This document shows, piece by piece, positions 10,344 to 57,505 of a DNA stretch of 64,000 nt (positions within the stretch are counted from its first letter, which is position 1; each line of letters starts with the position of its first letter). Origin of the DNA: an uncultured bacterium (GTDB lineage Bacteria; Fidelibacterota; Marinisomatia; SCGC-AAA003-L08; GCA-002704045); NCBI GenBank assembly GCA_964345035.1, contig CAYFPO010000007.1, forward strand, positions 2,444-66,443. The letters run 5' to 3'. The position numbers were made by a program, and so were the translations under genes. Under the pieces are notes generated by a model that was not told the origin of the DNA, searched no databases, and saw only the letters and a list, made by a program, of their open reading frames with translations.

Positions 10344-11147
10344 ATGAATCTTGGTACCTTAGTAGGATTATTATTAGGTTTCGCATTAATAGGTACAGGT
10401 ATGTACCTGTCTGCAAGTGGTGCAGGAAAAACAATGCTTGACTATTATGATACAGTTAGTATGCTTATTGTTTTGGGTGGTTCCTTGTCCGCAACTGCAA
10501 TTGCTTTTAAAATCGGAGATGTACTGTCTATTTTTAAATCCCTGGGCAGATTATTCAAGGATGATAATTTCACATTGGGGGACGTAGTGGATGATTGTGT
10601 AGAACTGGCTGAATCAAACAGAAAAGGACAGTTGGAAGGGCAATTAGATGCAACACCATCCTCCATGCCATTCAGGATGCATCCAATTAAAACTGGCATA
10701 CAAATGATCGTTGATGGTAGTAAACCTGAGGATATTGAGGAAGTATTAGAAAATACAGAGAAATACCGTTCACAAAGGGAAGCTATCAAAGCCAATGTAT
10801 TGAAAAAAATGGGTGAATATTCACCGGCATTTGGGATGGTAGGAACATTAATCGGCCTAGTTATGATGTTGTATGGTATGGGTTCAGGTGAAAGTGAAGA
10901 TATGGCAGCCAAATTAGGTCTTTCAATGGCGGTAGCATTAATAACCACATTATATGGAGCCATATTCGCTAATTTTTTCTTCTTACCATTTTCTGATAAA
11001 CTCAAAGGTAAAAATGAACAAAAAAGTGTTGAAAGTGCTTTATGTAGTGCAGGAGTCATGCTCATAGCAAAAAAGGTGCATCCAATATTAGTTAGAGAAA
11101 AACTCAATGCATATATTCCACGGGTTCAACGAAAAACTGAAGAATAA
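10344..11147 (+). CDS. motA: MotA/PomA-family stator channel protein
   Basis: 267 aa with a 2 TM + ~100-aa cytoplasmic loop + 2 TM layout. It has the conserved TM3 motif YSPAFGMVGTLIGLV and a TM4 proline (FFFLPF). Confidence 0.85.
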   Translation: MNLGTLVGLLLGFALIGTGMYLSASGAGKTMLDYYDTVSMLIVLGGSLSATAIAFKIGDVLSIFKSLGRLFKDDNFTLGDVVDDCVELAESNRKGQLEGQLDATPSSMPFRMHPIKTGIQMIVDGSKPEDIEEVLENTEKYRSQREAIKANVLKKMGEYSPAFGMVGTLIGLVMMLYGMGSGESEDMAAKLGLSMAVALITTLYGAIFANFFFLPFSDKLKGKNEQKSVESALCSAGVMLIAKKVHPILVREKLNAYIPRVQRKTEE

Positions 11148-11899
11148 TGGCAAAACCATTTAGAGAAGAAGATTGTCCTGTATGTCCTGATGAAGGATTG
11201 CCGGGATGGATGGGTACATTTGCAGATATGATGACATTATTGTTTGCATTTTTTGTACTTTTGTTTTCCATGTCAACCTTAGACCCTGTTAAAATGGCTC
11301 AAATGGCAGAAACAATGACTGATTTTACAACAGGTGCTAAGGAGGATACACCAGATAAAGAACCTATGAAAAGTTCTTCTCAAATAAAATCAGATCTAAA
11401 CGAAATTAAGGATAATGTTGATGAAAGTTTAAAAGGTAAAATTACCGTTTCAAGTGATGAACAAGGCGTTGCTGTTGAATTGGATGGTGATATTTGTTTT
11501 GATATGGGAACTGTGATTTTACATGAAAAATTGATGGAAATATTAGATACAGTAGCTCCAAAATTGATGACACATCCTACAGATATGCGACCAATTCAAA
11601 TACAGGGGCATTCGGATAATATCAAGGTTCCTTTTCCATTAAGTGAAAAATTTCCTACGAACTGGGAATTATCATCTGCAAGGGCTGCTGTGGTAGTAAA
11701 TTATTTAATTAAAAATCATGGCATTAATCCGACCAGGCTAAGGGCAATTGGATTTGCAGATAGATGGCCATACGGGATTGATTTTATGGATATGAGAAAA
11801 CACGGGTTTGTTGATGATGCAAAGATTGCAGAATATAATTCTACTCCTGAAAAAATGGCGAAAAATAGAAGAATAAAAATCGTATTCCAACCCAGTTAA
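11147..11899 (+). CDS. motB: MotB/PomB-family stator protein with OmpA-like peptidoglycan-binding domain
   Basis: 250 aa. The ATG overlaps the motA stop (TAATG). N-terminus ..CPVCPDEGLPGWMGTFADMMTLLFAFFVLLF carries the conserved TM aspartate. The C-terminal OmpA-like region is NWELSSARAAVVVNYL...RLRAIGFADRWP. Confidence 0.85.
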   Translation: MAKPFREEDCPVCPDEGLPGWMGTFADMMTLLFAFFVLLFSMSTLDPVKMAQMAETMTDFTTGAKEDTPDKEPMKSSSQIKSDLNEIKDNVDESLKGKITVSSDEQGVAVELDGDICFDMGTVILHEKLMEILDTVAPKLMTHPTDMRPIQIQGHSDNIKVPFPLSEKFPTNWELSSARAAVVVNYLIKNHGINPTRLRAIGFADRWPYGIDFMDMRKHGFVDDAKIAEYNSTPEKMAKNRRIKIVFQPS

Positions 11900-13784: not shown

Positions 13785-13933
13785 AATTTTATGTAATATA
13801 CACTACAAAATAGGGTATCTTTTTCTTTGCTAAGAAAAATGAACCCTATAATTTAAAAAGTTATATCGAGGAAATGAATAATCCTTTATTCAATTTTCAT
13901 ACAAAATTCTCTTTTATAAAATCAGGAGGCAAC

Positions 13934-16792
13934 ATGAAGTCCATAGATGTCAAAAGTGTAATAATCGGAATGCTATCAATGGTAATCATTTTTATGACTG
14001 TTGGTATGCGCCAGACTGTAACCAATATGGGTGATATAGGTGTCACCTCTATTACCGTGATCGGCGAGGATGATGAAAAAGCATTGTTCATCGGCAGCGG
14101 AGGTGGTGGAAACGGTTATTTAAAAACGTATAATAAATATGGTAAAACCAGCGCATATCTGGGAACCGGAGGAGGCGGAACAGGTGGTTTCAAAATCTAT
14201 AACAGAGATGGTAAAACTCTGGCCTTCATTAGTGGATCTAAAGAAGGGAGAGGATTTCTGGAAATTTCAAATTCTAATGGAGATGCTGCAGCAAAATTAC
14301 TCGCAGATGATAATGATAGTGGACAATTGAGATTAAATGATGCGGATGGCAATATGGCATTTGATTCGGATAATGCAATGACTGGAGATGCATCTTTAGG
14401 TGATGTAACTGTTAATTCACTTTCTGTAATTGATGCAGAAGATGCACTGAAAGTGTATCTGGGTGTGGATGATGAGAAAAATGGGTATCTCCGGGTCACT
14501 CATGAAATTGAAGATTATTATTATCCATCAGATGAACCGGAAATTGAATTAGATACTTTTGGTGACATTTCAGTAAAATCCATTACAATTACTGATAGTG
14601 ATAACAATACCAGGGCATTCTTAGGATTGGATGATTCCCAAAATGGTCAATTAAAACTCTCAGATACTGAAACAGAAACTGTATATCCTCTGACTGAAGC
14701 TGAGCCGGAATTAGATTTCGGGGATATTCGTGTATCGTCCCTTACTGTAGTAAACGAAAATCAAAGTGCAATAGGATATTTTGGGCCATCTGATGAGGGA
14801 AAAGGCAATATCCGCACTTTGGATATGGAAGGAAGTGTACTGTTTTCATCAGATGAAACATCCAAAGTTGAAGGAAATCTTGGAAATATCCGTGTTAATT
14901 CCATAACTGTCCAGGATGGTGCAGAAAATGAGGTAATATACCTTGGTACTGATGAAGCTTTAAATGGACTCATCAGTGTTGCAAATGCAGATGGAGATGT
15001 TACATTTACAACTTCAGATCCTGCTAAAGAGAGTAAAGAGAAAAATCTGGGGGACATCACAGTAAATTCTATTACTGTAATGAATGAATATTTCACACCT
15101 ACTACATTTATCGGAAATACACCTGAGGGAAGTGGCCGTTTGGAAGTAAATGATTTTACGGGAAATTCAATTTTTAATTCGGATCAGGCAGTACAGACGG
15201 GTGAAGAATTTGGAGAGATCCAGGTGAGATCACTTGAGATAGTTAATCAAAATCAAGAAACCATGATGACACTTGGCACCGCACAAGGACAATTCGGTGT
15301 AATGAAAGCCAGGGATTCCGCCGGAAATGTGATCTTTTCATCTGATGAGATACCCAAGGGTGGGGATGGTCAAATTACCGGTGACGATATTGTTGTGAAT
15401 TCCATTACACTAAAAAATGAAAATGATGAGATAACCGGATTCCTTGGAAATTCCGAAGATGGAAACAGTGAGTTAAGGATATACGGTACTGATGAATCTG
15501 AAACAGTATTATTAGGGACAAACTTCAGTGGACACGGATTTATGAGGACGTATAATACAGATGGTACTCAGACATTGTATATGGGAACTTCTGAAAGTGG
15601 CGACGGATTATTAAAAACGTATAGTTCAGAGGGAAAAAAGACTACTTATTTGGGTTCTAACAAAAACAATACAGGCATGTTGAACACCTATAATGATTTT
15701 GGAGATATGGCGGCAATGATTGGTACATCATCTAATAACAGCGGCACTACAAAAATGTTTGATTCAAACGGTGGATTGATTTTTTCAGTTAATGATACTT
15801 CTGGCAATACTACAACTAAAAATCTTACAGCAAAAAGTGTAACCGTAGTAGATGGTTCGGGTGCAGGGAAAGGATTTATTGGTGTTAATAATTTCGGTAA
15901 AGGATTTATCAGTACCAATAATGTATATACTGACACAATTAGGTCTGAATATGGCAATACTACTAAAATTCAAGCCAATCAGGTCGCAGTTAAAAATGAC
16001 TACGGTGAGGAAAGAATTTTCTTGGGAGTAAATCAAGAAGATATAGGTTTTATAAAAACCAATTTATCCAATACAGATATTGACTTTCTTTCAACTGAAT
16101 CGGCTAAAAATACAGAAGTCCTGGGAGATATTCAGGTTTCCTCTTTATCCATCACTACCCCGGAGGGAGATACCCGTGTATTTTTGGGGAGAAATAAGGA
16201 AGGAAATGGAATCATTACCACTCATAATGAAATAGGCGCCCAGACTAACTTTCTTGGCTCAGATATTGACGGTAGTGGTAAACTACAGATATCAAATACA
16301 ACTGGACAAAAAATTGCGACAATCGGAACAGGAGTGAATGATGGAGGTTCATTGACTACATACAATCGAATGAATGAGATAACTGCATCATTGGGTGTCA
16401 GTGAAGATGGTGTTACCGGTCACCTCACTGGAATTGATCACGTGGAAACATTTAATCAAATTGGTTTTAAAACCGCTTACTTTGGGAACGGAAGTAGTGA
16501 TGAAGGACTGTTACGTGTATTTAATGCAGAAGGTGTACAATCCATGTTGATGGGGACCTTATCCACAGGTGGTGGAATTATCACATCAAACACTAAAGGA
16601 CTGATTACATCCTTTCTTGGAACCAGCGGTAGTGATGGCGGTCATTTGATCACTTATAATTCTTATGGTAAGAAAACATCCTTTATGGGTACAAATAAGC
16701 ATAATGACGGGATGGTGATCCTACGGGATAAAGGTGGCAATATCGGATGGGGAAAAGATGGGAGAATTCCGGCATACTACGCAAAACAATAA
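13934..16792 (+). CDS. membrane-anchored repeat protein (single N-terminal TM, then ~36 degenerate 22-29-aa Gly/Asn/Thr-rich repeats)
   Basis: ORF 13874..16792. I prefer the ATG at 13934, preceded by AGGAGG. TM helix SVIIGMLSMVIIFMTVG. Repeats are of the form G.G.L.(T/V)YN..GK.T.YLGT.... and of the form (L/F)GDI.V.SITV.D......(Y/F)LG.....G.L.... No enzymatic motif is recognised. Confidence 0.75.
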   Translation: MKSIDVKSVIIGMLSMVIIFMTVGMRQTVTNMGDIGVTSITVIGEDDEKALFIGSGGGGNGYLKTYNKYGKTSAYLGTGGGGTGGFKIYNRDGKTLAFISGSKEGRGFLEISNSNGDAAAKLLADDNDSGQLRLNDADGNMAFDSDNAMTGDASLGDVTVNSLSVIDAEDALKVYLGVDDEKNGYLRVTHEIEDYYYPSDEPEIELDTFGDISVKSITITDSDNNTRAFLGLDDSQNGQLKLSDTETETVYPLTEAEPELDFGDIRVSSLTVVNENQSAIGYFGPSDEGKGNIRTLDMEGSVLFSSDETSKVEGNLGNIRVNSITVQDGAENEVIYLGTDEALNGLISVANADGDVTFTTSDPAKESKEKNLGDITVNSITVMNEYFTPTTFIGNTPEGSGRLEVNDFTGNSIFNSDQAVQTGEEFGEIQVRSLEIVNQNQETMMTLGTAQGQFGVMKARDSAGNVIFSSDEIPKGGDGQITGDDIVVNSITLKNENDEITGFLGNSEDGNSELRIYGTDESETVLLGTNFSGHGFMRTYNTDGTQTLYMGTSESGDGLLKTYSSEGKKTTYLGSNKNNTGMLNTYNDFGDMAAMIGTSSNNSGTTKMFDSNGGLIFSVNDTSGNTTTKNLTAKSVTVVDGSGAGKGFIGVNNFGKGFISTNNVYTDTIRSEYGNTTKIQANQVAVKNDYGEERIFLGVNQEDIGFIKTNLSNTDIDFLSTESAKNTEVLGDIQVSSLSITTPEGDTRVFLGRNKEGNGIITTHNEIGAQTNFLGSDIDGSGKLQISNTTGQKIATIGTGVNDGGSLTTYNRMNEITASLGVSEDGVTGHLTGIDHVETFNQIGFKTAYFGNGSSDEGLLRVFNAEGVQSMLMGTLSTGGGIITSNTKGLITSFLGTSGSDGGHLITYNSYGKKTSFMGTNKHNDGMVILRDKGGNIGWGKDGRIPAYYAKQ

Positions 16793-18069: not shown

Positions 18070-20133
18070 ATGGGTAATATTAAAATTATATTATTAGTAT
18101 TTTGCGCTTCAATAACGCACATCTATGGACAATCGTATAATATGGAGTTGTTAGGGCATCTGCCTTTTGACCAGGAATGTTCAGATATCACCGGTTTTTA
18201 TCAGGATGGTAGAGAGTTTGCAGTCGTTGGTTTATATAACGGTTCTGTATTTGTGGATGTTACAGATCCAGGTGAACCATTTGAAGTTGGCAGGATAACA
18301 GGAAGTAACAGCATTTGGAGGGATTTAAAATACTGGAATCGCCATGTTTATATCGGAACAGAAGCAAATGATGGAGTCCAGGTGGTAAGTGTTGATGATC
18401 CAGACACTCCGATACTGGTAAATTTAATTAATGATTTTACCAGCAGTCATAATATCCACGTAGCAGATGGATTTTTATATGTCGTGGGTGCAGGTGATCA
18501 TCATATCTGGATTTATGATCTATCAAATCCAGAGAATCCGACACTAGCCGGCACCTGGGATGAGGAATATATCCATGATCTCCATGTGTATAACAATAAA
18601 GCGTATTGTGCGGCGATTTATTCCAGTACGGTCTATATATTGGATGTATCTGACAAAAATTCTATAAATACACTTACCAGTTGGTCTTATGAAGGGAAAG
18701 CCCACGACTGTGCTGTTACCAGCGATGAGACCATTCTGATCACCGGAGATGAAATGACAGGAGGAAATATAAAAATTTGGGATATATCTGATTATGACAA
18801 TATTCAATTATTGAGTGAATATATGGTTGACCCTGCACATTCAGTACATAATGTATATAATATAGATAATCTGGTTTATTGTTCATATTATGCTGACGGG
18901 ACCAGAGTTTTGGATATCTCTGATCCTGAATATCCGATTGAAGTTGGGTATTATGATACAAGTGAATTGGAATCATTATATGTGGGGAATTGGGGGGTTT
19001 ATCCATTTTTACCCAGTGGAAATATTATTTCAAGTGATATAGAAACCGGATTATATATTACCCGATTAACAGGGCTGTCAATTATCCACGACCCGATAGA
19101 AGATGTATCTCACGAAGCAGCCAACTATCCGATAGAATCAATAATCAGATCATTTTCCGGCGAAGTTGCAGCTGCTTTTGTTTTTTACCGGTTATTAGGT
19201 ATCGGTAATGAATCCTGGACCTCTATTAGTTTATCTGATGATGGAGATGGAAACTATTCAGGTGAAATTCCACAACAGATATTAGGTACGGTTATTCAGT
19301 ATTATATTTATGCCACTAATGAATTTTATGAAGAGTCTACATTTCCACCTGAAGGAATTATAGATCCTCTGCTATTTACAGTTGGTCAACTACCCGAAAT
19401 ATATACAGAAAATTTTGAAGTTGACTCCGGTTGGTCAACTGATCCATCCGATGATGCATCCTCAGGTATCTGGGTTAGAGATGAGCCCATTCCAACTTAT
19501 TTGGGTGACATTAATGTCCAGCCGGGCACTGACCACACACCTGACGGCACAAATTGTTTTATCACAGGAAATACAGATAATCCATATGAACCCGGTTTAG
19601 ATGACGTAGATTCAGGAACAACCACATTGATAAGTCCGGTTTTTGATTGTTCATCCTATGATCATGCTATGTTAACCTATTGGCGGTGGTACACAAATAA
19701 TACGGGTGATAATCCCAATGAAGATTACTGGCAGGTTGAGATTTCCAATGATTTCGGGTCAACTTGGAGCACTCTTGAAATGACAAATCAATCAAATGCA
19801 GATTGGACATTTCACAGGGTGATTTTGTCTGACTATGTAGAAATTACAGAAGGAATACAGCTAAGATTTAAAGCATCAGATTACTTCAACCCATCTTTGG
19901 TTGAAGCAGCAGTAGATGATATTGCAATAGCTGTGTTCGGTCAGCCTGTCATACTTGGTGATGTAAATTTTGACATCTCAGTTGATATTTTGGATGTTGT
20001 ATCCATTGTTCAATTCATTCATGGTAATATTGAATTTAATGCTTTTGAAATACAGGCAGCAGATTTTGATATGGATGGAATTGTAAATGTCCTGGATATT
20101 GTTGCTATTATTGATTTTATTTTGGATAATTGA
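18070..20133 (+). CDS. secreted LVIVD-repeat (choice-of-anchor-B-like) beta-propeller protein with a MAM/anchor-J-like domain and a C-terminal dockerin module
   Basis: 687 aa with a signal-like N-terminus. It has repeated LVIVD-type strands (VFVDVTDP, VQVVSVDDP, IWIYDLSNP, VYILDVSD, IKIWDISD, TRVLDISDP). The C-terminus is GDVNFDISVDILDVVSIV....AADFDMDGIVNVLDIVAIIDFIL, two dockerin-like Ca-loop/helix repeats. Confidence 0.75.
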   Translation: MGNIKIILLVFCASITHIYGQSYNMELLGHLPFDQECSDITGFYQDGREFAVVGLYNGSVFVDVTDPGEPFEVGRITGSNSIWRDLKYWNRHVYIGTEANDGVQVVSVDDPDTPILVNLINDFTSSHNIHVADGFLYVVGAGDHHIWIYDLSNPENPTLAGTWDEEYIHDLHVYNNKAYCAAIYSSTVYILDVSDKNSINTLTSWSYEGKAHDCAVTSDETILITGDEMTGGNIKIWDISDYDNIQLLSEYMVDPAHSVHNVYNIDNLVYCSYYADGTRVLDISDPEYPIEVGYYDTSELESLYVGNWGVYPFLPSGNIISSDIETGLYITRLTGLSIIHDPIEDVSHEAANYPIESIIRSFSGEVAAAFVFYRLLGIGNESWTSISLSDDGDGNYSGEIPQQILGTVIQYYIYATNEFYEESTFPPEGIIDPLLFTVGQLPEIYTENFEVDSGWSTDPSDDASSGIWVRDEPIPTYLGDINVQPGTDHTPDGTNCFITGNTDNPYEPGLDDVDSGTTTLISPVFDCSSYDHAMLTYWRWYTNNTGDNPNEDYWQVEISNDFGSTWSTLEMTNQSNADWTFHRVILSDYVEITEGIQLRFKASDYFNPSLVEAAVDDIAIAVFGQPVILGDVNFDISVDILDVVSIVQFIHGNIEFNAFEIQAADFDMDGIVNVLDIVAIIDFILDN

Positions 20134-23644: not shown

Positions 23645-26128
23645 TTGCTAAAAGCTGCTTTATTCAGTTTTATTTCCGTATTGTATTCCGGCGGAATTTT
23701 TGGTGAATGGAACCATTATACATCATTACTCACACCAACCGATGTGGTCATTCAGGATGATGATAGAATTTATGCAGCCACCATTGGCGGGTTACTTGAA
23801 CTTAATACTGAAACAAATAAGTTTAATTTTATAACAAGTAATTACCTCGAATACCTTGATTTATCGTCAATGATTAACGATTCCTTCCAAAACCTCATTC
23901 TTGGCGGTAATCCACCTGATAGAACAATCCAGATTTTTCACAATGAATTTGGATTACGAAATACCATTAATAATCTAGGTGAAGTTGATAAAATCCTGAA
24001 ATTTGAGTTGAATGAACCATATCTATTCGCAGCATATAAATCTGATGCATCCTATGGTATATTGAAGTTCTTGTATAATGAATTTGGAGTTCCGGAATAT
24101 CAGGACTTCTACAATAATTTTCCTGAGCAATTTACCAATATATCCGATATTGATTTGATGAATGATACCGTGTTTGTTACAACCCCGGAAGGAATCTTTT
24201 ACGGCAATTATATTACGGAAAACCTGAAATCAAGTGACAATTGGAAAAGTATGTCAATTCCCATAGAATTACCTATGGTATTTTATCCGGATTCATCAGG
24301 ATATTTCATCGGGGGATATAATGAGTTATGGAGGAAAATAAACGAGAATTGGGAAGTATTGGAGTTGGAAATTGATACTGAATTATCTACGGATTTTCAA
24401 GCACTAGATATTGCTGGTATTGGAAATAATTCTGTGGGGATTCTGACCAAAAAACAATACTTCCAATTAGAAAACTCTGAAACAGTGACTACTGAGTTTG
24501 AATTTTCTATACCGGTTAACACTGATTTTACTGCATTTGATTATTTAGAAAATACCGCAGCATTTGGTATGAAGCATCATGGCATATTGATGTTGGATGT
24601 GGATTCCAACAGTTATGAAATTTACGTACCGGATACTCCAATTCATAATCAGTATGATGCTATTGAAGTTTTGGGTAATGGAAGTCTGGTCGGAGTATGT
24701 AATAGAAACGAGGTAGATGAATATAATATTTCTGATGAAATCGGTGGTGTTACAATCTTTGAAAATGAGGGATTCATCAATTATATTTCCTCTATGTCTA
24801 ATTCTTATTGGGAATACCCTGTTAATGTATCTGAATTCAATTATTTTACAGGGATTGAGATTGATTATCGCCCTGGTGCCAATGATACTTGGAGTATTAT
24901 TGAATCCGAATCAGGTAATTTATTGGTTTCCAATAGTGGAAACCGCCCTAATTTGGATCAGGGAAAGGGAGGTGTTATCGAATTAAATTTAAATACAAAT
25001 GAAGCCATAATTTATGATACAACCAATAATGTGCTCGACGGTTTGGATGGAATTTACCGGAATATCTGGACTACCAGATATTTAACCATTAACCAATTGA
25101 ATAAAGATCCGGAAGGTAATATTTGGGTTATGAATCCCTACTCAGAAGTGTATAATCTGCCTGCTGCCATCCAATTATCAGACGGTCAGACCTGGAGTCA
25201 TATTTCAGCACAAGATGAATTATCCTATATGCCCCAGGAAATTGCATTTGACCAGACTGAGCTTGCATGGTTTGGTTTTCAATATGTGTTAAATTGGGCA
25301 GGTACTGCAGTTTATTCAGATGGAGGACTAAAAGTGCTTGATACAAAGGGTACCTATGGTAATCCAACAGATGACACGTGGTTGAATTTAACAAATCCAG
25401 AAATTTTACCAAATGGAAAAAATACTTCTATCTGGTCATTAACATCAGATAATCTGAATCGAATCTGGGTACTGACATCTTTTGGAGTCCAGGGATATAT
25501 ATTTTCCAGATATGGAAATTCCATTTCTTTAATGCCATTGTATACGGATATTGAAGGTGAACTATTTAACTATCTCTCATTTTTAAATCTGAATCAAGGA
25601 GATCGTATTCGCGTGGACAGTCAAAATAATATCTGGATTTCTACGCGGAATTCAGGAGTTTGGTTCATCCCGGAAGACACTCCTCCGTGGGAAGATCTCA
25701 CACAATATTCAACAGAAACATCTCCAATATTATCGAATATAGTATATGATATGGCATTTGATCATACAGACGGAACTGTGTATTTCGCTACTGAAAAGGG
25801 AATTTCATACTTGACGCTTCCCATCAATTCAGTAAAAAAAAACGCAGATAATCAGATTAGAATAAGCCCTAATCCATTACGGTTACCGGATGATAGTTAT
25901 GCAGAAATTTATGATATCTACCCCGGTTCCACAGTCAAAATAATGCAATTATCCGGTGAAGTCGTCCGAAGTTTAAACAGTAATGTGATCAGTCAAAATG
26001 ACACAGCAGTACAATGGGATGGACGTAATTCATCCGGCGAGTATGTGGGGTCCGGTGTGTATCTGGTTGCCGTATCTCATCCGGAAGGTGGAAATGCAGT
26101 GTCCAAGATCGCAGTGATCAGACAATAA
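23645..26128 (+). CDS. secreted beta-propeller-like repeat protein with T9SS-type C-terminal sorting domain
   Basis: 827 aa, TTG start, signal-like N-terminus. Recurrent W/Y-rich propeller-like segments. The C-terminal ~90 aa (ISPNPLRL...VQWDGRNSSGEYVGSGVYLVAV....SKIAVIR) is a FlgD-Ig/T9SS-tail-like domain. Confidence 0.6.
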   Translation: MLKAALFSFISVLYSGGIFGEWNHYTSLLTPTDVVIQDDDRIYAATIGGLLELNTETNKFNFITSNYLEYLDLSSMINDSFQNLILGGNPPDRTIQIFHNEFGLRNTINNLGEVDKILKFELNEPYLFAAYKSDASYGILKFLYNEFGVPEYQDFYNNFPEQFTNISDIDLMNDTVFVTTPEGIFYGNYITENLKSSDNWKSMSIPIELPMVFYPDSSGYFIGGYNELWRKINENWEVLELEIDTELSTDFQALDIAGIGNNSVGILTKKQYFQLENSETVTTEFEFSIPVNTDFTAFDYLENTAAFGMKHHGILMLDVDSNSYEIYVPDTPIHNQYDAIEVLGNGSLVGVCNRNEVDEYNISDEIGGVTIFENEGFINYISSMSNSYWEYPVNVSEFNYFTGIEIDYRPGANDTWSIIESESGNLLVSNSGNRPNLDQGKGGVIELNLNTNEAIIYDTTNNVLDGLDGIYRNIWTTRYLTINQLNKDPEGNIWVMNPYSEVYNLPAAIQLSDGQTWSHISAQDELSYMPQEIAFDQTELAWFGFQYVLNWAGTAVYSDGGLKVLDTKGTYGNPTDDTWLNLTNPEILPNGKNTSIWSLTSDNLNRIWVLTSFGVQGYIFSRYGNSISLMPLYTDIEGELFNYLSFLNLNQGDRIRVDSQNNIWISTRNSGVWFIPEDTPPWEDLTQYSTETSPILSNIVYDMAFDHTDGTVYFATEKGISYLTLPINSVKKNADNQIRISPNPLRLPDDSYAEIYDIYPGSTVKIMQLSGEVVRSLNSNVISQNDTAVQWDGRNSSGEYVGSGVYLVAVSHPEGGNAVSKIAVIRQ

Positions 26129-48674: not shown

Positions 48675-48782
48675 TGTGACAAAAGTCAATTGCAATATAT
48701 TGTTACATTTTAAAATTAAAATTGGTTTGCATGATGTTAAATAAGTAATATAACTTTGAGGCGTAAATTAAAGGAGAATGTC

Positions 48783-49523
48783 ATGAAAAAAATTAACATC
48801 TTACTAAGTACCTCCGTAGCTCTTTCTTTGGTAATGGGAGCAGCTACTGTAGGTATCAACAAAGCTCTAACAGAATCTGTCGGGTCGAAAGTAAATCTTT
48901 CAGTGGACTCACAAGAAGATGTTTACGGCTTACAATTTGAAATCAAATACAACACCGATGAATTAAATTTGAATTCAGTTTCCTCAAAATTAGAGGGATT
49001 CACATTTGAATATAGAGAAAAAGAAAACGGTATTGTAAAAGGTCTGATGTTCAGTCTGGAAGGCGTTGCTCTTTCTACTGCAAATTCTGTATCAGATCTA
49101 TTGGAATTTGATTTCACTTCAAAAAATGGTTTTGATGGATCAAGCACAGTAAATTTCAATGAAGTTATTCTAGCTGGCGAACATGGTACTTCAATAGAAG
49201 TCAGTACAAACTCATTTGAAGTAAACGCAGGTGCTGCAATTCCTGATAAAACCAATTTAAATAAAAACTATCCAAACCCATTTAATCCTACAACTCAGAT
49301 AGAATACTCTCTTGCTGACGCAGGAATGGTTTCGCTGATTGTTTATGATTTGAATGGCGCTGAGGTAAATACTCTGGTGTCTGAATCAAGAGATGCCGGT
49401 CATTACACAGCAGTTTGGACTGGAATAAATAACCAAGGTAATCCGGTTGCAAGTGGTCGTTATATTCTGAAAATGACTGCACCGAATTATACCGAAACAA
49501 TTACCATGACTCTCCTTAAGTAA
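48783..49523 (+). CDS. cohesin-domain protein with T9SS-type C-terminal sorting domain
   Basis: ATG at 48783 (AAAGGAG upstream) gives the signal peptide MKKINILLSTSVALSLVMGAA. The cohesin-like core is KVNLSVDSQEDVYGLQFEIKYNTDELNLNSV...GIVKGLMFS...LLEFDFTSK..FDGSSTVNF. The tail is KNYPNPFNPTTQIEYSL......VYDLNG.......GRYILKM. Confidence 0.7.
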   Translation: MKKINILLSTSVALSLVMGAATVGINKALTESVGSKVNLSVDSQEDVYGLQFEIKYNTDELNLNSVSSKLEGFTFEYREKENGIVKGLMFSLEGVALSTANSVSDLLEFDFTSKNGFDGSSTVNFNEVILAGEHGTSIEVSTNSFEVNAGAAIPDKTNLNKNYPNPFNPTTQIEYSLADAGMVSLIVYDLNGAEVNTLVSESRDAGHYTAVWTGINNQGNPVASGRYILKMTAPNYTETITMTLLK

Positions 49524-52494: not shown

Positions 52495-53445
52495 ATGAAA
52501 TTGTGTCAGATAGATGAATTTAAAGTAGGGAAATCTGTTCAGGGGTTTTATTTATGCAAAGAAAAACAAGTAAGAAACACGCGGAATGGTGATTTATACC
52601 TTGATTTATTACTGGTGGATGGTTCGGGAAGTGTTCACGCAAAATTATGGGATCATGTTGATACGTTCATGAACAGATTTATAAAGGGGGATGCAGTTGC
52701 AGTGAAGGGAATACCTACAGAATATCACAATGAAATTCAGTTAACTATTACCCAAATTAATAAAGCCACAAATGAAAAATATAACAAGTATGGATTTAAC
52801 CCTTTACTGCTGATTCCGTCTTCAGAAATTCCACCTGAAAAATTATGGAAAGAACTCCAATCTATAATTAAAAAGATTACTGACTCAAATGTGCAGAATC
52901 TGTTAAAAATAATCTTTGACAAGCATAGAGAAATAATTTCCATATTACCTGCGTCGGTACACCATCACCATCCGGTACGTGGTGGATTTCTGGAACATAT
53001 TGTATCTACAGGAAGCATTGCAGTTAAGTTAAAAAACCAATATAAAGATGTGAATAATGATTTAGTAATTGCAGGTGTGTTGTTACATGATATTGGAAAA
53101 ATTAATGGTATGACCGGTGAACTTGAATCTGATTATACTTTAGATGGTCATCTCATCGGTCACACAGTGCTCGGTTGGGAAATTGTGAAAAATGCAATTT
53201 CTGAAATTAAAGAGTTTGATGATGTTTTGGCTAAAAAGCTGGAACATATCATAATTGCCCATCAGGGAAAGCAAACAGACGGGGCTCCTCGGATTCCTAA
53301 ATTTCCTGAAGCATTATTGGTTCATTATATTGACGAGATCGATGGTAAAATTGACCTAATGATACGAACTATTAAAGAGGACAATAATTTAGAGGAATGG
53401 ACGGACAAAAGAAATATATTTCGTACTCAAATCTGGAAAAAATAG
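52495..53445 (+). CDS. yhaM: 3'-5' exoribonuclease YhaM-like (OB fold + HD domain)
   Basis: 316 aa. N-terminal OB-fold segment (NG..YL.L.L.D.SG...AKLWD), then an HD domain (HHHHP..GG.LEH, LLHDIGK). Confidence 0.8.
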   Translation: MKLCQIDEFKVGKSVQGFYLCKEKQVRNTRNGDLYLDLLLVDGSGSVHAKLWDHVDTFMNRFIKGDAVAVKGIPTEYHNEIQLTITQINKATNEKYNKYGFNPLLLIPSSEIPPEKLWKELQSIIKKITDSNVQNLLKIIFDKHREIISILPASVHHHHPVRGGFLEHIVSTGSIAVKLKNQYKDVNNDLVIAGVLLHDIGKINGMTGELESDYTLDGHLIGHTVLGWEIVKNAISEIKEFDDVLAKKLEHIIIAHQGKQTDGAPRIPKFPEALLVHYIDEIDGKIDLMIRTIKEDNNLEEWTDKRNIFRTQIWKK

Positions 53446-53500
53446 TTCAAATATTTAACAGCAGATTGGTTAAATTTCATTTAAAATAACGAAGGGAAAA

Positions 53501-54025
53501 ATGAAAAATATCAAAAATATTACAATTACCGGCATCATACTGGTTGCGGTAGTTTCAAGATTTATACCACATCCGCCGAATTTTACGCCTATTCTTGCAA
53601 TTTGCATGTTCAGTGGGATCATGTTTCAGGATAAAAAATTAAGTTTCCTGATTCCAATTATTATGATGGTAATTAGTGATGCATTTCTTGGATTTCACAA
53701 TAATTTGTTTTGGGTGTATGGAACATTACTTCTCATAGTTGGTATGGGCATATATATGCAAGATAAAGTTAAATTACCCACTGTAATTTTAGGTGTAACA
53801 TCAAGTTCGATAGGCTTTTTTCTAATCACTAATTTTGGTGTGTGGCTGGGGAGTATTTCATATCCCCAAACATTGTCAGGATTAGCATTATGTTATACTG
53901 CTGGGATTCCTTTCCTGAAAAATACAATCCTAAGTAATTTCCTGTTTTCCGGGATATTTTTTGCCGTATATAGTATAGTAAGTAGAATCATCCCGGAATT
54001 GAAATTCAATCCTCAACAACATTAA
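53501..54025 (+). CDS. integral membrane protein of unknown function (5-6 TM)
   Basis: 174 aa and strongly hydrophobic. The N-terminus ..VSRFIPHPPNFTPILAICMFSG recalls a conserved uncharacterised transporter-like family (possibly DUF6580, from memory and unverified). Confidence 0.5.
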   Translation: MKNIKNITITGIILVAVVSRFIPHPPNFTPILAICMFSGIMFQDKKLSFLIPIIMMVISDAFLGFHNNLFWVYGTLLLIVGMGIYMQDKVKLPTVILGVTSSSIGFFLITNFGVWLGSISYPQTLSGLALCYTAGIPFLKNTILSNFLFSGIFFAVYSIVSRIIPELKFNPQQH

Positions 54026-54026
54026 T

Positions 54027-55571
54027 TTGAAAAAATATAATCATTTCTATTTCAAAAACCGCTCTTATCCGGAGCGGTTTTTACTTTTAGTACTATTCAT
54101 CATCTCTTCATTACTAATCGGAAATGAATCTCAATTTATATCTATTCAAACAGATCAGACAGGACAATCACAGTTTTTGATTGATATAAATTCACCGGGG
54201 TATTTCCCCGATATTAAAATTGGATCTATTCGATATGATGGTACCTTAAATCTACCTATAGGAATCTACAAAATTACTGAATTTCCTCACTCATCAAATT
54301 CAGATACAAACGAAGTAAGAAATTTTTTCAACTGGAAACAAGGCGATTTTGAGTATAGAGAAATCAGCATTGGAGCAAAGTCTGCAAGTATTGATAGCGG
54401 CAGGATTCGCTTTTCCGGATTTGGCAGGTCGTTTCCCGGGAATGACGGCAGATTGGGACCACCCGGCTCTGATTATAAAGGAAATGTACTACAGAATTAT
54501 TTATTAGAATATGAAAAGGAATATAGAAATGGTGAATTTACTTCCGGATTCGCCTACCATAAGGAAAATGTGGGTTTACCGACAGTTGGTTCTTCAAACG
54601 GATTTAGAAACACTGAGTCTTTCCATCTAAGTACCGATTACAATGTTAAATTGAAAAAAATGAACATCGTCTCCTCATCAGCTTTCCAAATTGGAACTTT
54701 TGACAGGGAGGGGCATACTGCAGAATATTTGGTTAAATGGCTGGATGTTTCAGGAGATTATGAACTGAATGATAATAATTGGTTCATCATTCAATATTCT
54801 GGTAAAAAACTATCGGTTGAATCAAAGGAATTACTCCAGGATATTTCAAGTATTGCAATTAATCATACAAAACTAAATTATTTTTATCATAAACCAACTT
54901 TTGGAATTTCAGTAAGCATTGATGCTCTTGGGTCAACAGTTTTTCCGGGAATTGAGATTAGTAAAAACCTGTTTGATTTTCAATTTTCCATAAAACGCAG
55001 TATTGCCAATGAAATGAATACTACGGATTCTTTAAAATTCACCAATGTGTCTGTAATAAATAATAATGTTTCAGTAAAATATAATTCAGATCGCTTCTTG
55101 CATTTTAATACAAAAATTACCGGGATGTATTTAGAATGGGATAAATATCAATTCCCCGGAATTTCAGGTCAATTCCAAATTTCTCAACCATGGATATCTT
55201 TATCGGGAGAAGGTGTCTATTATAATTCTCAGGATATATTGGTAAGTCGATATGGACATTTATCTGCTAATCTGCATCCGGTTTTATGGTGGACTGACAG
55301 ATACAGATTTTCTGCAGGGATAGAAGGCATTTATTATCATTTGCCAGGTACATTTACTCTTGATCTAAATTCCATTACCGGTGTTACAAATGAAATAGCA
55401 AACCCTGCAAATGTTGGATTTATTAATTGGAAATTTGGATTGAAGGTAAAAAATTTCAGTCTGACATATTATACAAGTTTCCTGTCAAATCAGGAAATAA
55501 ATATATCACCAGCCATTATCCCGATAGAGCCTTTCTCATATTTGGCAGTTGATTGGCGATTTATAAATTAA
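54027..55571 (+). CDS. hypothetical protein, probable outer-membrane beta-barrel
   Basis: 514 aa, TTG start directly after the previous stop, hydrophobic N-terminal segment. The C-terminal two thirds show alternating aromatic/polar strand patterns (..YLAVDWRFIN at the end). No family is recognised. Confidence 0.4.
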   Translation: MKKYNHFYFKNRSYPERFLLLVLFIISSLLIGNESQFISIQTDQTGQSQFLIDINSPGYFPDIKIGSIRYDGTLNLPIGIYKITEFPHSSNSDTNEVRNFFNWKQGDFEYREISIGAKSASIDSGRIRFSGFGRSFPGNDGRLGPPGSDYKGNVLQNYLLEYEKEYRNGEFTSGFAYHKENVGLPTVGSSNGFRNTESFHLSTDYNVKLKKMNIVSSSAFQIGTFDREGHTAEYLVKWLDVSGDYELNDNNWFIIQYSGKKLSVESKELLQDISSIAINHTKLNYFYHKPTFGISVSIDALGSTVFPGIEISKNLFDFQFSIKRSIANEMNTTDSLKFTNVSVINNNVSVKYNSDRFLHFNTKITGMYLEWDKYQFPGISGQFQISQPWISLSGEGVYYNSQDILVSRYGHLSANLHPVLWWTDRYRFSAGIEGIYYHLPGTFTLDLNSITGVTNEIANPANVGFINWKFGLKVKNFSLTYYTSFLSNQEINISPAIIPIEPFSYLAVDWRFIN

Positions 55572-55573
55572 AT

Positions 55574-56860
55574 TTATTTCATTAACAGCATTTTACCGGT
55601 TTTAGTGCCACTTGAAGTAGATAATCTGTAAAAATAGGGTCCTGATACTTCATTTTTAAAACTAACTTTCACCGAATTCATCCCAGGTGAAAATATAGAT
55701 TGTTTCTCTGCAAAAATTTGTGTACCAAGTGCATTATATACAGATAATGTCACATTATCTGGTGTATCCAGAAAAAATGAAATTGTAGTTTCCGGATTGA
55801 ATGGATTTGGATAATTTCCAAATAGTTTAAATTCATCCGGAGAGATTATTTGTTCGGTAATGGATAATGGAGAATTCCAAAATGCAAAGGAACCGGGTAT
55901 GCCTCCAACTGAATGCCTTACCACTTCATTGCTGTTAGAATCCAGAACCACCACTTCATCCGGTGCAATAAAATCATCTGAAAGTCCCAGATAAACATAT
56001 TCACCGTTTGCAGCCATTGAATATACATACTCAAAATCTTCAGTACCTATTCTGGTTTCTGGAATAATTTCCAGATTTTCATCCAGCTTAGCAATACCAC
56101 CATTCCAGGTTCTATACACCGAACCCTGATAGGTAGTTATATCACCGCCACATAAAGCCAAACTATTCACACCATAATTCTGGATTGTAATTTCTCCTGT
56201 GGATAGATTAATGGATGATGTGCCGGTAAATTGTGTCCAGGACTCGTCATAAAATATGCGTGCGATATAAAGTACGCCATCGTGCAGCACCATTTGGCCG
56301 GGTCCCGTACCTACATCATAAGTAGTCACAACCGTGTTGGATTCCGGGTCAATTGCAGCCACCAGGTTCCCATCACTCCAATCGGAATGTAGTACGATGG
56401 ATACATAAATCAGATTACCGTCTGTTACCATCATCTCAGGTAATCCGTCAACCGGAATGGAAGTGATGAAATTATAAGTTGTCATATCAATTATAGAAAT
56501 TGATTGTGTATCCCATTCGGTTAAATATCCGTAATTGCCTAAAACAAGCAATTCTCTTGGCACTGAATTATTAGTGTCTATTGTTTGGGAATAGGTAATG
56601 CTTCCGTCATCTTCCTCAATATCATACACACGAATCTGACTTGAGCCATTCAGGATAACGTAGAGTGTATTGTCAACAACGGTCATAGATTGCCCGACAT
56701 TCCCGATGGGATTGTCTATTGCTTCTGTGATTTCAAAATTTCCATTTTCAACCCACAGAGAAGCATCATTTGAGTAGAAGTCCCCTTCACACAGAATAAA
56801 TGCAGATTCAGCTGAAATTGCAATGGAAATCATAAAGATTAATTGGATCAGTATTTTCAT
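55574..56860 (-). CDS. secreted YncE/YVTN-like beta-propeller protein with T9SS-type C-terminal sorting domain, controlled by a cobalamin riboswitch
   Basis: The track ORF extends to 56887, inside the riboswitch terminator. The ATG at 56860 has AAAGGAG upstream and gives the signal peptide MKILIQLIFMISIAISAES. Propeller-like strands include FILCEGDFYSNDASLW, LYVILNGSSQIRVYD and GVLYIARIF. The tail is GNYPNPFNPETTISFFL...LSVYNALG...GPYFYRL.... Confidence 0.75.
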   Translation of the reverse strand: MKILIQLIFMISIAISAESAFILCEGDFYSNDASLWVENGNFEITEAIDNPIGNVGQSMTVVDNTLYVILNGSSQIRVYDIEEDDGSITYSQTIDTNNSVPRELLVLGNYGYLTEWDTQSISIIDMTTYNFITSIPVDGLPEMMVTDGNLIYVSIVLHSDWSDGNLVAAIDPESNTVVTTYDVGTGPGQMVLHDGVLYIARIFYDESWTQFTGTSSINLSTGEITIQNYGVNSLALCGGDITTYQGSVYRTWNGGIAKLDENLEIIPETRIGTEDFEYVYSMAANGEYVYLGLSDDFIAPDEVVVLDSNSNEVVRHSVGGIPGSFAFWNSPLSITEQIISPDEFKLFGNYPNPFNPETTISFFLDTPDNVTLSVYNALGTQIFAEKQSIFSPGMNSVKVSFKNEVSGPYFYRLSTSSGTKTGKMLLMK

Positions 56861-56873
56861 TTTTACTCCTTTA

Positions 56874-57045
56874 AACAAAAAACCCACAATCGTGAATCAA
56901 GTGGGTAATTTAAATTTCCTGACCTTAATCCACGAAGGTAATATAGAAAGTGAAAGTATCTGGCTTGTCCCATGCAGGGGCTTCACAGTTGCGGGTCAGC
57001 TTCGGATTTCAACCGAATTCCTTCCAGTTAGTATGATTGAATTTA
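56874..57045 (-). promoter_or_regulatory. cobalamin (B12) riboswitch with candidate terminator
   Basis: The minus strand reads ..TAACTGGAAGGAATTCGGTTGAAATCCGAAGCTGACCCGCAACTGTGAAGCCCCTGCATGGGACAAGCCAGATACTTTC.. This matches the conserved core (GGGAA..GGTGaaAatCC....C.G..CCCGC.ACTGT) and a B12-box-like AAGCCAGATAC. It is followed by ACCCAC-N13-GTGGGTTTTTTG and AAAGGAGTAAAAATG. Boundaries are approximate. Confidence 0.75.
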
Positions 57046-57175
57046 CAGGCTAAGTTACTACCTCAGAAACAATTATTTTTTCAATTTATTATGAAATTAC
57101 CCAATGATTTATACCTGTTTATCCAAGTAACTTATAAGCTGATTTTAAACTAATATTTTACTAAAGGAGGCTAAA

Positions 57176-57505
57176 ATGAGTGAATTTATAAGTGAATTTA
57201 CAGATGAAAATTTCACTGAAGAAGTGCTTCAATCCCCAGTTCCTGTATTGGTTGATTTCTGGGCTGAATGGTGTGGACCTTGTAGAGCACTGAATCCGGT
57301 TATTGAAGAAATTTCAAAAGAATATAACAGCAAAATAAAATGTGGAAAGGTGAATGTGGACCATAGTCCAAACACTGCATCAAGTTACGGGATAAGAAGT
57401 ATTCCCAGTTTATTATTTTTTAATGATGGAAAAGTCAGTGAACAATTGGTTGGTGCTGTGCCAAAAAATCAAATTACTAATATTTTGGACGGGTTAACAA
57501 AATAG
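57176..57505 (+). CDS. trxA: thioredoxin
   Basis: 109 aa with the active site FWAEWCGPCR. A strong SD (AAAGGAGG) lies upstream. Confidence 0.96.
   Translation: MSEFISEFTDENFTEEVLQSPVPVLVDFWAEWCGPCRALNPVIEEISKEYNSKIKCGKVNVDHSPNTASSYGIRSIPSLLFFNDGKVSEQLVGAVPKNQITNILDGLTK

Follow-up and report, generated by a model that had tools for sequence, protein, structure and literature searches.

The window considered here, the whole stretch of DNA that was analysed, comprises 64,000 nucleotides (64 kb) of contig CAYFPO010000007.1, from an uncultured bacterium of the Fidelibacterota (Marinimicrobia). It carries a gene for an exported beta-propeller protein (55574-56860, minus strand; 428 amino acids, aa) preceded on the same strand by a cobalamin riboswitch, and referred to below as the btuG-like gene. 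The gene next to it, barrel514 (54027-55571, plus strand), is convergent, and the two stop codons are 2 nucleotides (nt) apart; the riboswitch-led unit therefore consists of a single gene. Upstream of barrel514, on its strand, lie genes for a small membrane protein of family DUF6580 and a YhaM-like exoribonuclease. The open reading frame (ORF), its start and the single-gene unit are as given in an initial annotation made from the sequence alone. An alternative, longer reading from a GTG at 56887 begins within a terminator stem of the leader, and the start picked by public gene callers, which yields 419 aa, cuts short the signal peptide.

A BtuG homologue with a T9SS tail

The btuG-like protein is predicted to consist of a signal peptide, read from the sequence (aa 1-17; 56810-56860), a seven-bladed propeller (aa 18-330; 55871-56809), a disordered linker (aa 333-348) and a type A C-terminal domain of the type IX secretion system (T9SS; aa 350-428; 55577-55813), all on the minus strand. 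A plain phmmer search of PDB sequences retrieved entries 8BMX, 8BMY, 8BN0, 8BAI, 8BAZ and 3DSM (E 5e-6 to 3e-4, the best match covering aa 12-193), all of them BtuG2 of Bacteroides thetaiotaomicron according to two structure papers. With a profile built from 39 homologues, the alignment extended over aa 14-326 and the matches reached E 8e-37 for BtuG2, 1.5e-36 for BtuG3 and 2.6e-30 for BtuG1, ranging overall from 8e-37 to 7e-29. BtuG2 itself belongs to Pfam family DUF5074 (PF16819; E 1.2e-20), which also matched 24 of the 39 homologues (best E 1.6e-22).

Structure prediction gave the same result. The AlphaFold2 (AF2) model has a mean predicted local distance difference test score (pLDDT) of 88.7 and shows a seven-bladed propeller, a disordered linker and a beta-sandwich tail (aa 357-426). 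When the model was compared with the PDB using Foldseek, ranks 1-16 were all BtuG1, BtuG2 or BtuG3 (E 3e-17 to 1e-13), with template modelling (TM) scores on the target of 0.72-0.82 and root-mean-square deviations of 2.6-5.1 Å for chains of BtuG only, and a score of 0.42 for the BtuG1-BtuH fusion chain 8blw_B. Escherichia coli YncE shares the general seven-bladed YVTN-type propeller, but membership of that family was rejected, as the matches to its models were sub-threshold (PF21783, 18.9 bits against a cut-off of 27.1; NF052280, 20.5 against 400). The label 'YncE-like' in the initial annotation is thus not borne out, BtuG being far closer. Its description of the propeller as similar in general type to BtuG had the kinship right and understated it, since profile, Foldseek and contact residues all identify a true homologue.

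We took the corrinoid contacts of BtuG2 from the published papers and mapped them onto the window protein. Nine positions are identical, namely E55 (E25 in the window protein), G56 (G26), F58 (F28), Q93 (Q57), N107 (N71), the arginine of the S-P-R motif (R133 in chain numbering, Arg135 in the preprint; R102), W194 (W161), S195 (S162) and I359 (I321), and these nine are invariant or nearly so across 35 Marinimicrobia homologues. They include the contacts to the corrin amides that are shared with BtuG1, BtuG2 and BtuG3 (E, G, Q, N, R, W and S). In addition, W149 matches W116 after a shift of one alignment column, and at Y335 the aromatic character is kept (F297). From these comparisons, we conclude that the window protein is a member of the BtuG family and probably a corrinoid binder, as expected of the surface B12-capture propeller that the initial annotation had proposed as a candidate.

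Just before the corrin-contacting Glu-Gly, the window family has a nearly invariant cysteine in an LCEGN motif (C24; codon 56789-56791), where BtuG2 of B. thetaiotaomicron has an asparagine. A conserved disulfide at this position is unlikely because C237 is the only other cysteine of the window protein. A role of C24 in cobalt ligation or decyanation would be pure speculation.

The C-terminal stretch (aa 350-424) matched the sorting-domain models PF18962 (31.4 bits, cut-off 27) and TIGR04183 (38.1 bits, cut-off 23), and PDB entry 8GLJ was retrieved as a sorting-domain match. The N-terminus, MKILIQLIFMISIAISA/ESAF, contains no cysteine and hence no lipobox, which agrees with the earlier proposal of a T9SS domain in place of a lipid anchor. 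Three anchors occur in the family: a type I signal peptide with a T9SS tail, found in the window protein and most relatives; a type I signal peptide with a dockerin; and, as in Bacteroides, a lipobox cysteine with no C-terminal domain (loci L026, L029-L032, L061, L067 and L098). T9SS tails are frequent across the phylum and as a rule occur together with btuB; they are therefore not specific to genes that stand without btuB. No T9SS machinery genes were found within the window.

Other window proteins bear sorting-domain-like tails (23645-26128 and 48756-49523). The second of these is a cohesin-like protein (E 3e-4) with a tail of T9SS type, and a protein with LVIVD repeats and a dockerin is encoded at 18070-20133. 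Together with the dockerin-tailed BtuG proteins of relatives, these cohesin-like and dockerin proteins suggest a cohesin-dockerin surface display in the phylum.

Cobalamin riboswitch and missing btuB

An Rfam scan detected the Cobalamin family RF00174 at 56934-57083 on the minus strand, with 39.8 bits against a gathering score of 31.5 (E 1.4e-6 across the whole window and 1.3e-8 locally). It is the sole cis-regulatory RNA that Rfam detects in the 64 kb. The aptamer is of a short form, in which 11 nt stand in for 64 model positions of the long peripheral P6 extension. Its core (CTGACCCGCAACTG and AGCCAGATAC) is kept in syntenic relatives, whose homologous riboswitches occupy the same position, and across the 129 loci compared, the core motif occurs at riboswitch positions only.

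Between aptamer and gene, an expression platform can be read from the sequence (56877-56905, minus). It would consist of an intrinsic-terminator hairpin made of CCCAC (56905-56901), a 13-nt loop and GTGGG (56887-56883), followed by U6 (56882-56877); the hairpin was missed by a pattern scanner because the loop limit of the latter is 8 nt. A competing hairpin (about 56889-56939), which is the minimum-free-energy fold of the leader, overlaps the 3' end of the aptamer and is built from that end together with the 5' arm and loop of the terminator. The same hairpin, U tract and Shine-Dalgarno sequence are present in the leader of locus L036, whose protein is 71% identical to that of the window, and terminators also come after the aptamer in L013 and L017. 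The layout is that of a usual transcriptional OFF switch, and the gene is accordingly presumed to be switched in this way. The Shine-Dalgarno sequence AAAGGAG (56866-56872, minus) stands 5 nt ahead of the ATG at 56860. A weak promoter-like site upstream of the aptamer, TTCACT and TAAAAT with an 18-nt spacer (57155-57184, minus), scored 9/12 in a consensus scan; sites of this kind show no enrichment over shuffled sequences, so that the promoter is placed here only tentatively.

No canonical TonB-dependent receptor was found within the 64 kb: a tblastn search with the receptor of a relative yielded no match better than E 2, and none of the other large ORFs of the window was annotated as one by Pfam. 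Homologues of the btuG-like protein come from metagenome-assembled genomes of Marinimicrobia (Neomarinimicrobiota, Fidelibacterota), and 33 genome loci were gathered with an alignment of 13 sequences. In L001, for example, a riboswitch (49.8 bits) is followed by a TonB-dependent receptor gene and then by the BtuG-like gene. A receptor gene lies immediately upstream of the BtuG-like gene in all loci with adequate upstream sequence (31 of the 33) except L009, and it is preceded by a cobalamin riboswitch in 17 of the 17 receptor-bearing loci scanned that had enough upstream sequence. The ten best PDB matches of the L013 receptor are all BtuB (BtuB3, BtuB2 and BtuB1 of B. thetaiotaomicron, and E. 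coli BtuB).

Six of these loci (L003, L004, L012, L013, L014 and L017) share the upstream flank of the window, where Trx-TrxB genes diverge from the riboswitch; in the window, the thioredoxin gene (57176-57505, plus) forms the upstream edge of the btuB-less site. Five of the six also have barrel514, DUF6580 and YhaM genes convergent on the downstream side, the contig of L003 ending just past btuG. In all six, a btuB of about 2.1 kb separates the riboswitch from btuG. The leaders of the window and of receptor-bearing relatives align through the aptamer core. Given the same flanks and aligned leaders, the window represents this very locus after a clean loss of btuB.

Four ENA and two Logan assemblies, drawn from two projects, contain an identical btuB-less junction. 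The contig of L036 likewise shows the thioredoxin gene, a 310-nt leader (aptamer 22.8 bits) and the btuG-like gene in succession, and in L043 (55%-identical homologue) the gene is preceded by AT-rich non-coding DNA over at least 63 nt. An assembly artefact as the cause of the absent btuB is ruled out by the L036 contig and at least six assemblies. Neighbour-joining trees place the window, L036 and L043 in a clade nested among btuB-linked genes. The arrangement in the window is thus a secondary state, in which btuB has been deleted from riboswitch-btuB-btuG. The orphan gene is under purifying selection, with dN/dS values of 0.07 against L036 (dS saturated) and 0.17 against L043.

These results bear on several claims of the initial annotation. 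Its riboswitch call is upheld by the score and by the homologous riboswitches at the syntenic site, and it correctly stated that no btuB adjoins the gene. Uncoupling from any TonB-dependent receptor gene holds only at the level of sequence, with the reservation that barrel514 models as a transporter-fold barrel without a Plug. The 'differently wired device' it envisaged is instead a derived form of an ordinary operon: the conserved synteny of riboswitch and propeller to which it had looked does exist in relatives, but there btuB normally sits between the two. For its alternative, an entirely new B12-regulated surface function, no support emerged.

Further solo genes under a riboswitch were detected at L009, L098, L044 and L046, a second group. 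Those of L009 and L098 lie at the syntenic site of the window gene and have the riboswitch directly upstream (34.3 and 43.0 bits, respectively). The genes at L044 and L046 are of dockerin type and lie in a different neighbourhood; their riboswitches belong to the adenosylcobalamin (AdoCbl) class RF01482 (L044 7847-7971, 60.8 bits; L046 5745-5866, 55.4 bits). A solo BtuG of lipoprotein type from TARA Oceans (L129, 4397-5663) adjoins DUF6580-barrel514; the 229 nt upstream of it are extremely AT-rich and without the riboswitch core motif, and the riboswitch seems to have been lost. Solo loci span lineages that are only about 47% identical to one another, and solo btuG is a recurrent state.

The convergent neighbours

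The barrel514 gene encodes 514 aa for which no match was found by sequence in Pfam, NCBIfam or the PDB, profile searches included. A word-indexed homologue search returned only the protein itself, and an exhaustive HMMER search was required to find relatives, of which there were only 71 among 1.84 billion representative proteins. The AF2 model, built with 38 relatives (pLDDT 88.6; predicted TM score 0.85), shows a signal helix, an N-domain of about 60 aa and exactly 22 strands (aa 98-513) joined by short loops. Its top 50 Foldseek matches in the PDB are all TonB-dependent transporters, with BtuB1 and BtuB3 of B. thetaiotaomicron first and E. coli BtuB included. The protein is therefore predicted to be a 22-stranded outer-membrane barrel of the TonB-dependent-transporter fold, and a candidate partner of the btuG-like protein.

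In contrast to TonB-dependent transporters, which combine a Plug (PF07715) with a barrel (PF00593), the modelled barrel has very short loops and only about 60 aa in front of it. Pfam detected no Plug domain in barrel514 or seven homologues, and no TonB-box-like motif was seen by eye. An hhalign comparison aligned aa 98-377 with the post-Plug region of the relatives' BtuB, barrel to barrel, at a weak 27% probability, which leaves sequence homology with BtuB-type receptors unproven. Genes of the barrel514 family stand tail to tail with btuG in more than 20 loci. In the window, no terminator is detectable between the two stop codons (55560-55590), and the convergent transcripts should therefore overlap; through such overlap, the state of the riboswitch could affect expression of barrel514-DUF6580 by antisense transcription.

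The DUF6580 gene (53501-54025, plus) ends 1 nt upstream of barrel514 and encodes 174 aa with about six transmembrane segments (PF20221, E 6e-51, 173.4 bits against a cut-off of 27). The family is widespread in soil and sediment metagenomes, and 80 metagenome loci were fetched with it. Outside Marinimicrobia, it occurs in cobalamin-riboswitch operons of unrelated bacteria from several phyla. The order is riboswitch, receptor, BtuG/DUF5074 and DUF6580 in L061 and L067, and riboswitch, receptor and DUF6580 in L105, L064, L079, L057 and L080; in L109 the riboswitch lies directly upstream of DUF6580, and L054 and L097 are further such loci. Other operon partners are a BtuF-like binding protein, a PduO-type adenosyltransferase and DUF4430. 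Among 16 loci picked by length alone, seven have a cobalamin-clan riboswitch beside DUF6580. No riboswitch was found ahead of DUF6580-barrel514 in the window or in 12 Marinimicrobia relatives.

In L020, L026 and L029-L032, an unrelated protein of about 174 aa fills the DUF6580 slot between yhaM and the barrel gene. Its sole PDB match is a 182-aa membrane subunit of ECF-CbrT (E 9.5e-4), which from its size must be the S-component CbrT, and it also matched Pfam ECF_trnsprt weakly. Genes for such CbrT-like proteins lie at 13109-13699 in L020, 12586-13110 in L026 and 4251-4826 in L128. Homology between DUF6580 and these S-components was ruled out (hhalign probability 0.7%), and the exchange looks like an in-place, non-homologous replacement of a small membrane protein in sister lineages. 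By sequence, DUF6580 matched neither BtuM, CbrT nor any solved structure at E 10. It resembles the small B12 transporters (CbrT of ECF-CbrT, PDB 6FNP; BtuM) in its length of about 175 aa and its six or so transmembrane segments and, like them, often adjoins btuB under a cobalamin riboswitch; it differs in lacking detectable sequence similarity to CbrT-like proteins or solved structures and, in Marinimicrobia, riboswitch control. We regard DUF6580 as a candidate new family of inner-membrane corrinoid transporters. The earlier statement that nothing in the sequence links the convergent neighbours to B12 does not hold for DUF6580, given its riboswitch operons elsewhere and its CbrT-like replacement.

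Next comes the gene for the YhaM-like 3'-5' exoribonuclease (52495-53445, plus; NF010007, E 6e-55, with an HD domain). The triad of yhaM, small transmembrane protein and barrel514 (52495-55571 in the window) is conserved in Marinimicrobia even in the absence of btuBG. In L127 and L129, it is preceded by a Fur-family gene. Elsewhere in the window, a MotA/ExbB-family gene is paired with a MotB-plug/OmpA gene (10344-11899), which could form a stator-like or a Tol/Exb-like energising module, and an ORF of 972 aa (13874-16792) has no Pfam match at E 1e-5.

Possible role of the solo gene

The best explanation of the locus, to which we assign a probability of about 0.7, is that it encodes a B12-repressed, T9SS-exported corrinoid catcher of the BtuG family that was orphaned by the deletion of btuB and is still functional. 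The protein would be made with a Sec signal peptide, moved across the outer membrane by the T9SS through its C-terminal domain, and displayed on the cell surface or released from it, and the propeller would capture cobalamin or other corrinoids in its central cavity. When the cell holds enough B12, the leader riboswitch would be bound, the terminator would form and the gene would be off. The locus derives from the riboswitch-btuB-btuG operon typical of the phylum, from which btuB was cleanly deleted. The orphan has retained the riboswitch and the binding residues and remains under strong purifying selection, which argues that it still serves B12 acquisition. Captured corrinoid might then be passed on through a btuB elsewhere in the genome or through the adjacent pair of Plug-less barrel and DUF6580.

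The window protein shares with BtuG1, BtuG2 and BtuG3 of B. thetaiotaomicron (DUF5074; PDB 3DSM, 8BMX, 8BAI, 8OKV and 8PTD) the seven-bladed propeller and control by a cobalamin riboswitch, and in relatives the gene sits directly downstream of btuB, as in Bacteroides. Unlike them, it is Marinimicrobial, has a type I signal peptide and a T9SS tail instead of a lipobox, and has no btuB in its operon. The ancestral operon of the locus encodes the same pair of proteins that forms the BtuB-BtuG 'pedal-bin' complexes (PDB 8BLW, 8BM0 and 8P97), but in the window the BtuB gene is deleted. The hinge of the Bacteroides complexes consists of an N-terminal lipid anchor and a linker, in whose place the window protein would need a C-terminal tether.

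Several observations weigh against a functional orphan. The lid function of BtuG in Bacteroides relies on a tight complex with its own BtuB, which cannot form here with a co-encoded partner, and the absence of btuB applies to the 64 kb of the window, not to the whole genome. The riboswitch score is modest at 39.8 bits, that of the closest homologue (L036) lies below the gathering score, and the solo relative L129 has no riboswitch core at all. Within the binding site, two polar contacts of BtuG2 are not kept (S131, V100 in the window protein; Q219, G186), and W272 is replaced by a non-aromatic residue (C237). Finally, when searched singly, the window protein fails to match Pfam DUF5074 (PF16819) at E 0.01.

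As to where the captured corrinoid would go, a canonical BtuB, or a different TonB-dependent receptor, whose gene lies elsewhere in the genome may receive B12 from the solo BtuG, with linkage lost and partnership kept. We consider this a serious but tentative proposal, at somewhat less than even odds. TonB-dependent receptors are numerous in the phylum, and riboswitch-btuB-btuG occurs in several neighbourhoods (L001, L008, L010, L015 and others), so that the genome could hold a second locus, much as three loci coexist in B. thetaiotaomicron. The dockerin-type solo genes of L044 and L046 lie in neighbourhoods without any barrel and must rely on unlinked partners. The 64 kb of the window, however, contain no canonical receptor gene, and the BtuB-BtuG complexes of Bacteroides are very tight and specific to each paralogue.

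The adjacent genes may themselves be the uptake route, the propeller docking on the Plug-less barrel514 and B12 then crossing the inner membrane via DUF6580. This is possible but rather unlikely. In its favour, the modelled barrel514 fold, with short loops and no Plug domain, matches BtuB best, and the tail-to-tail arrangement with btuG spans deep divergence. Moreover, barrel514 seldom occurs without DUF6580 or a CbrT-like S-component beside it, and DUF6580 is part of B12 riboswitch operons elsewhere, as in the length-chosen loci. The barrel514-DUF6580 pair nevertheless lacks a riboswitch in every Marinimicrobia locus scanned, coexists with canonical btuB in most relatives and is kept where btuBG are absent (L127 and L128), and barrel514 is missing from the vicinity of about half of the btuBG loci. 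Conservation is just as high for the flanking yhaM and trx genes, so the adjacency of barrel514 and btuG may be inherited synteny. Slightly more doubtful still is the full chain in which a T9SS-tethered BtuG would hand B12 to the Plug-less barrel and from there to the co-transcribed DUF6580, so that B12 enters without a canonical TonB-gated BtuB; if true, BtuG-barrel514-DUF6580 would be a previously undescribed two-membrane route of B12 uptake.

It is improbable that the protein is a released or surface-held agent that sequesters B12, hoarding it or denying it to competitors, with no dedicated import partner. Cargo of the T9SS is not always anchored and may also be set free. BtuG2 by itself takes B12 away from intrinsic factor and keeps competitors in check (2026 review). 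However, OFF control by intracellular B12 suits an acquisition gene that feeds the cell, and a femtomolar to picomolar binder without a mechanism of release would leave the cell's own need unmet. That the gene is a decaying remnant, or a propeller unrelated to B12 such as a YncE-like protein, is very improbable: the operon partner has been lost and YncE models match, though only below threshold, but the ORF is intact with low dN/dS, the binding residues are invariant, the riboswitch is kept, solo loci persist across divergent lineages and BtuG is by far the best match in sequence and structure alike.

The orphaned corrinoid catcher that we favour belongs to the same protein family and follows the same regulatory logic as BtuG of Bacteroides. 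What is new is the occurrence of the family in an abundant uncultured marine phylum, its three interchangeable surface anchors and the loss of a partner that had looked obligate. BtuG homologues were described by Wexler et al. as lipoproteins exclusive to Bacteroidetes. Our literature searches found nothing linking BtuG to T9SS or dockerins, and nothing relevant on BtuG in marine metagenomes or on DUF6580. A BtuB-independent role of BtuG is listed as unresolved in the 2026 review; the solo btuG genes of several lineages are a natural test of whether BtuG works without BtuB, for which the soluble propeller domain (aa 18-330 of 428) is a concrete test object. Two further leads adjoin the gene, DUF6580 as a candidate corrinoid transporter and the family of Plug-less barrels. 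B12 is a limiting and traded vitamin in the ocean, and how dominant deep-water heterotrophs acquire it is therefore of ecological relevance.

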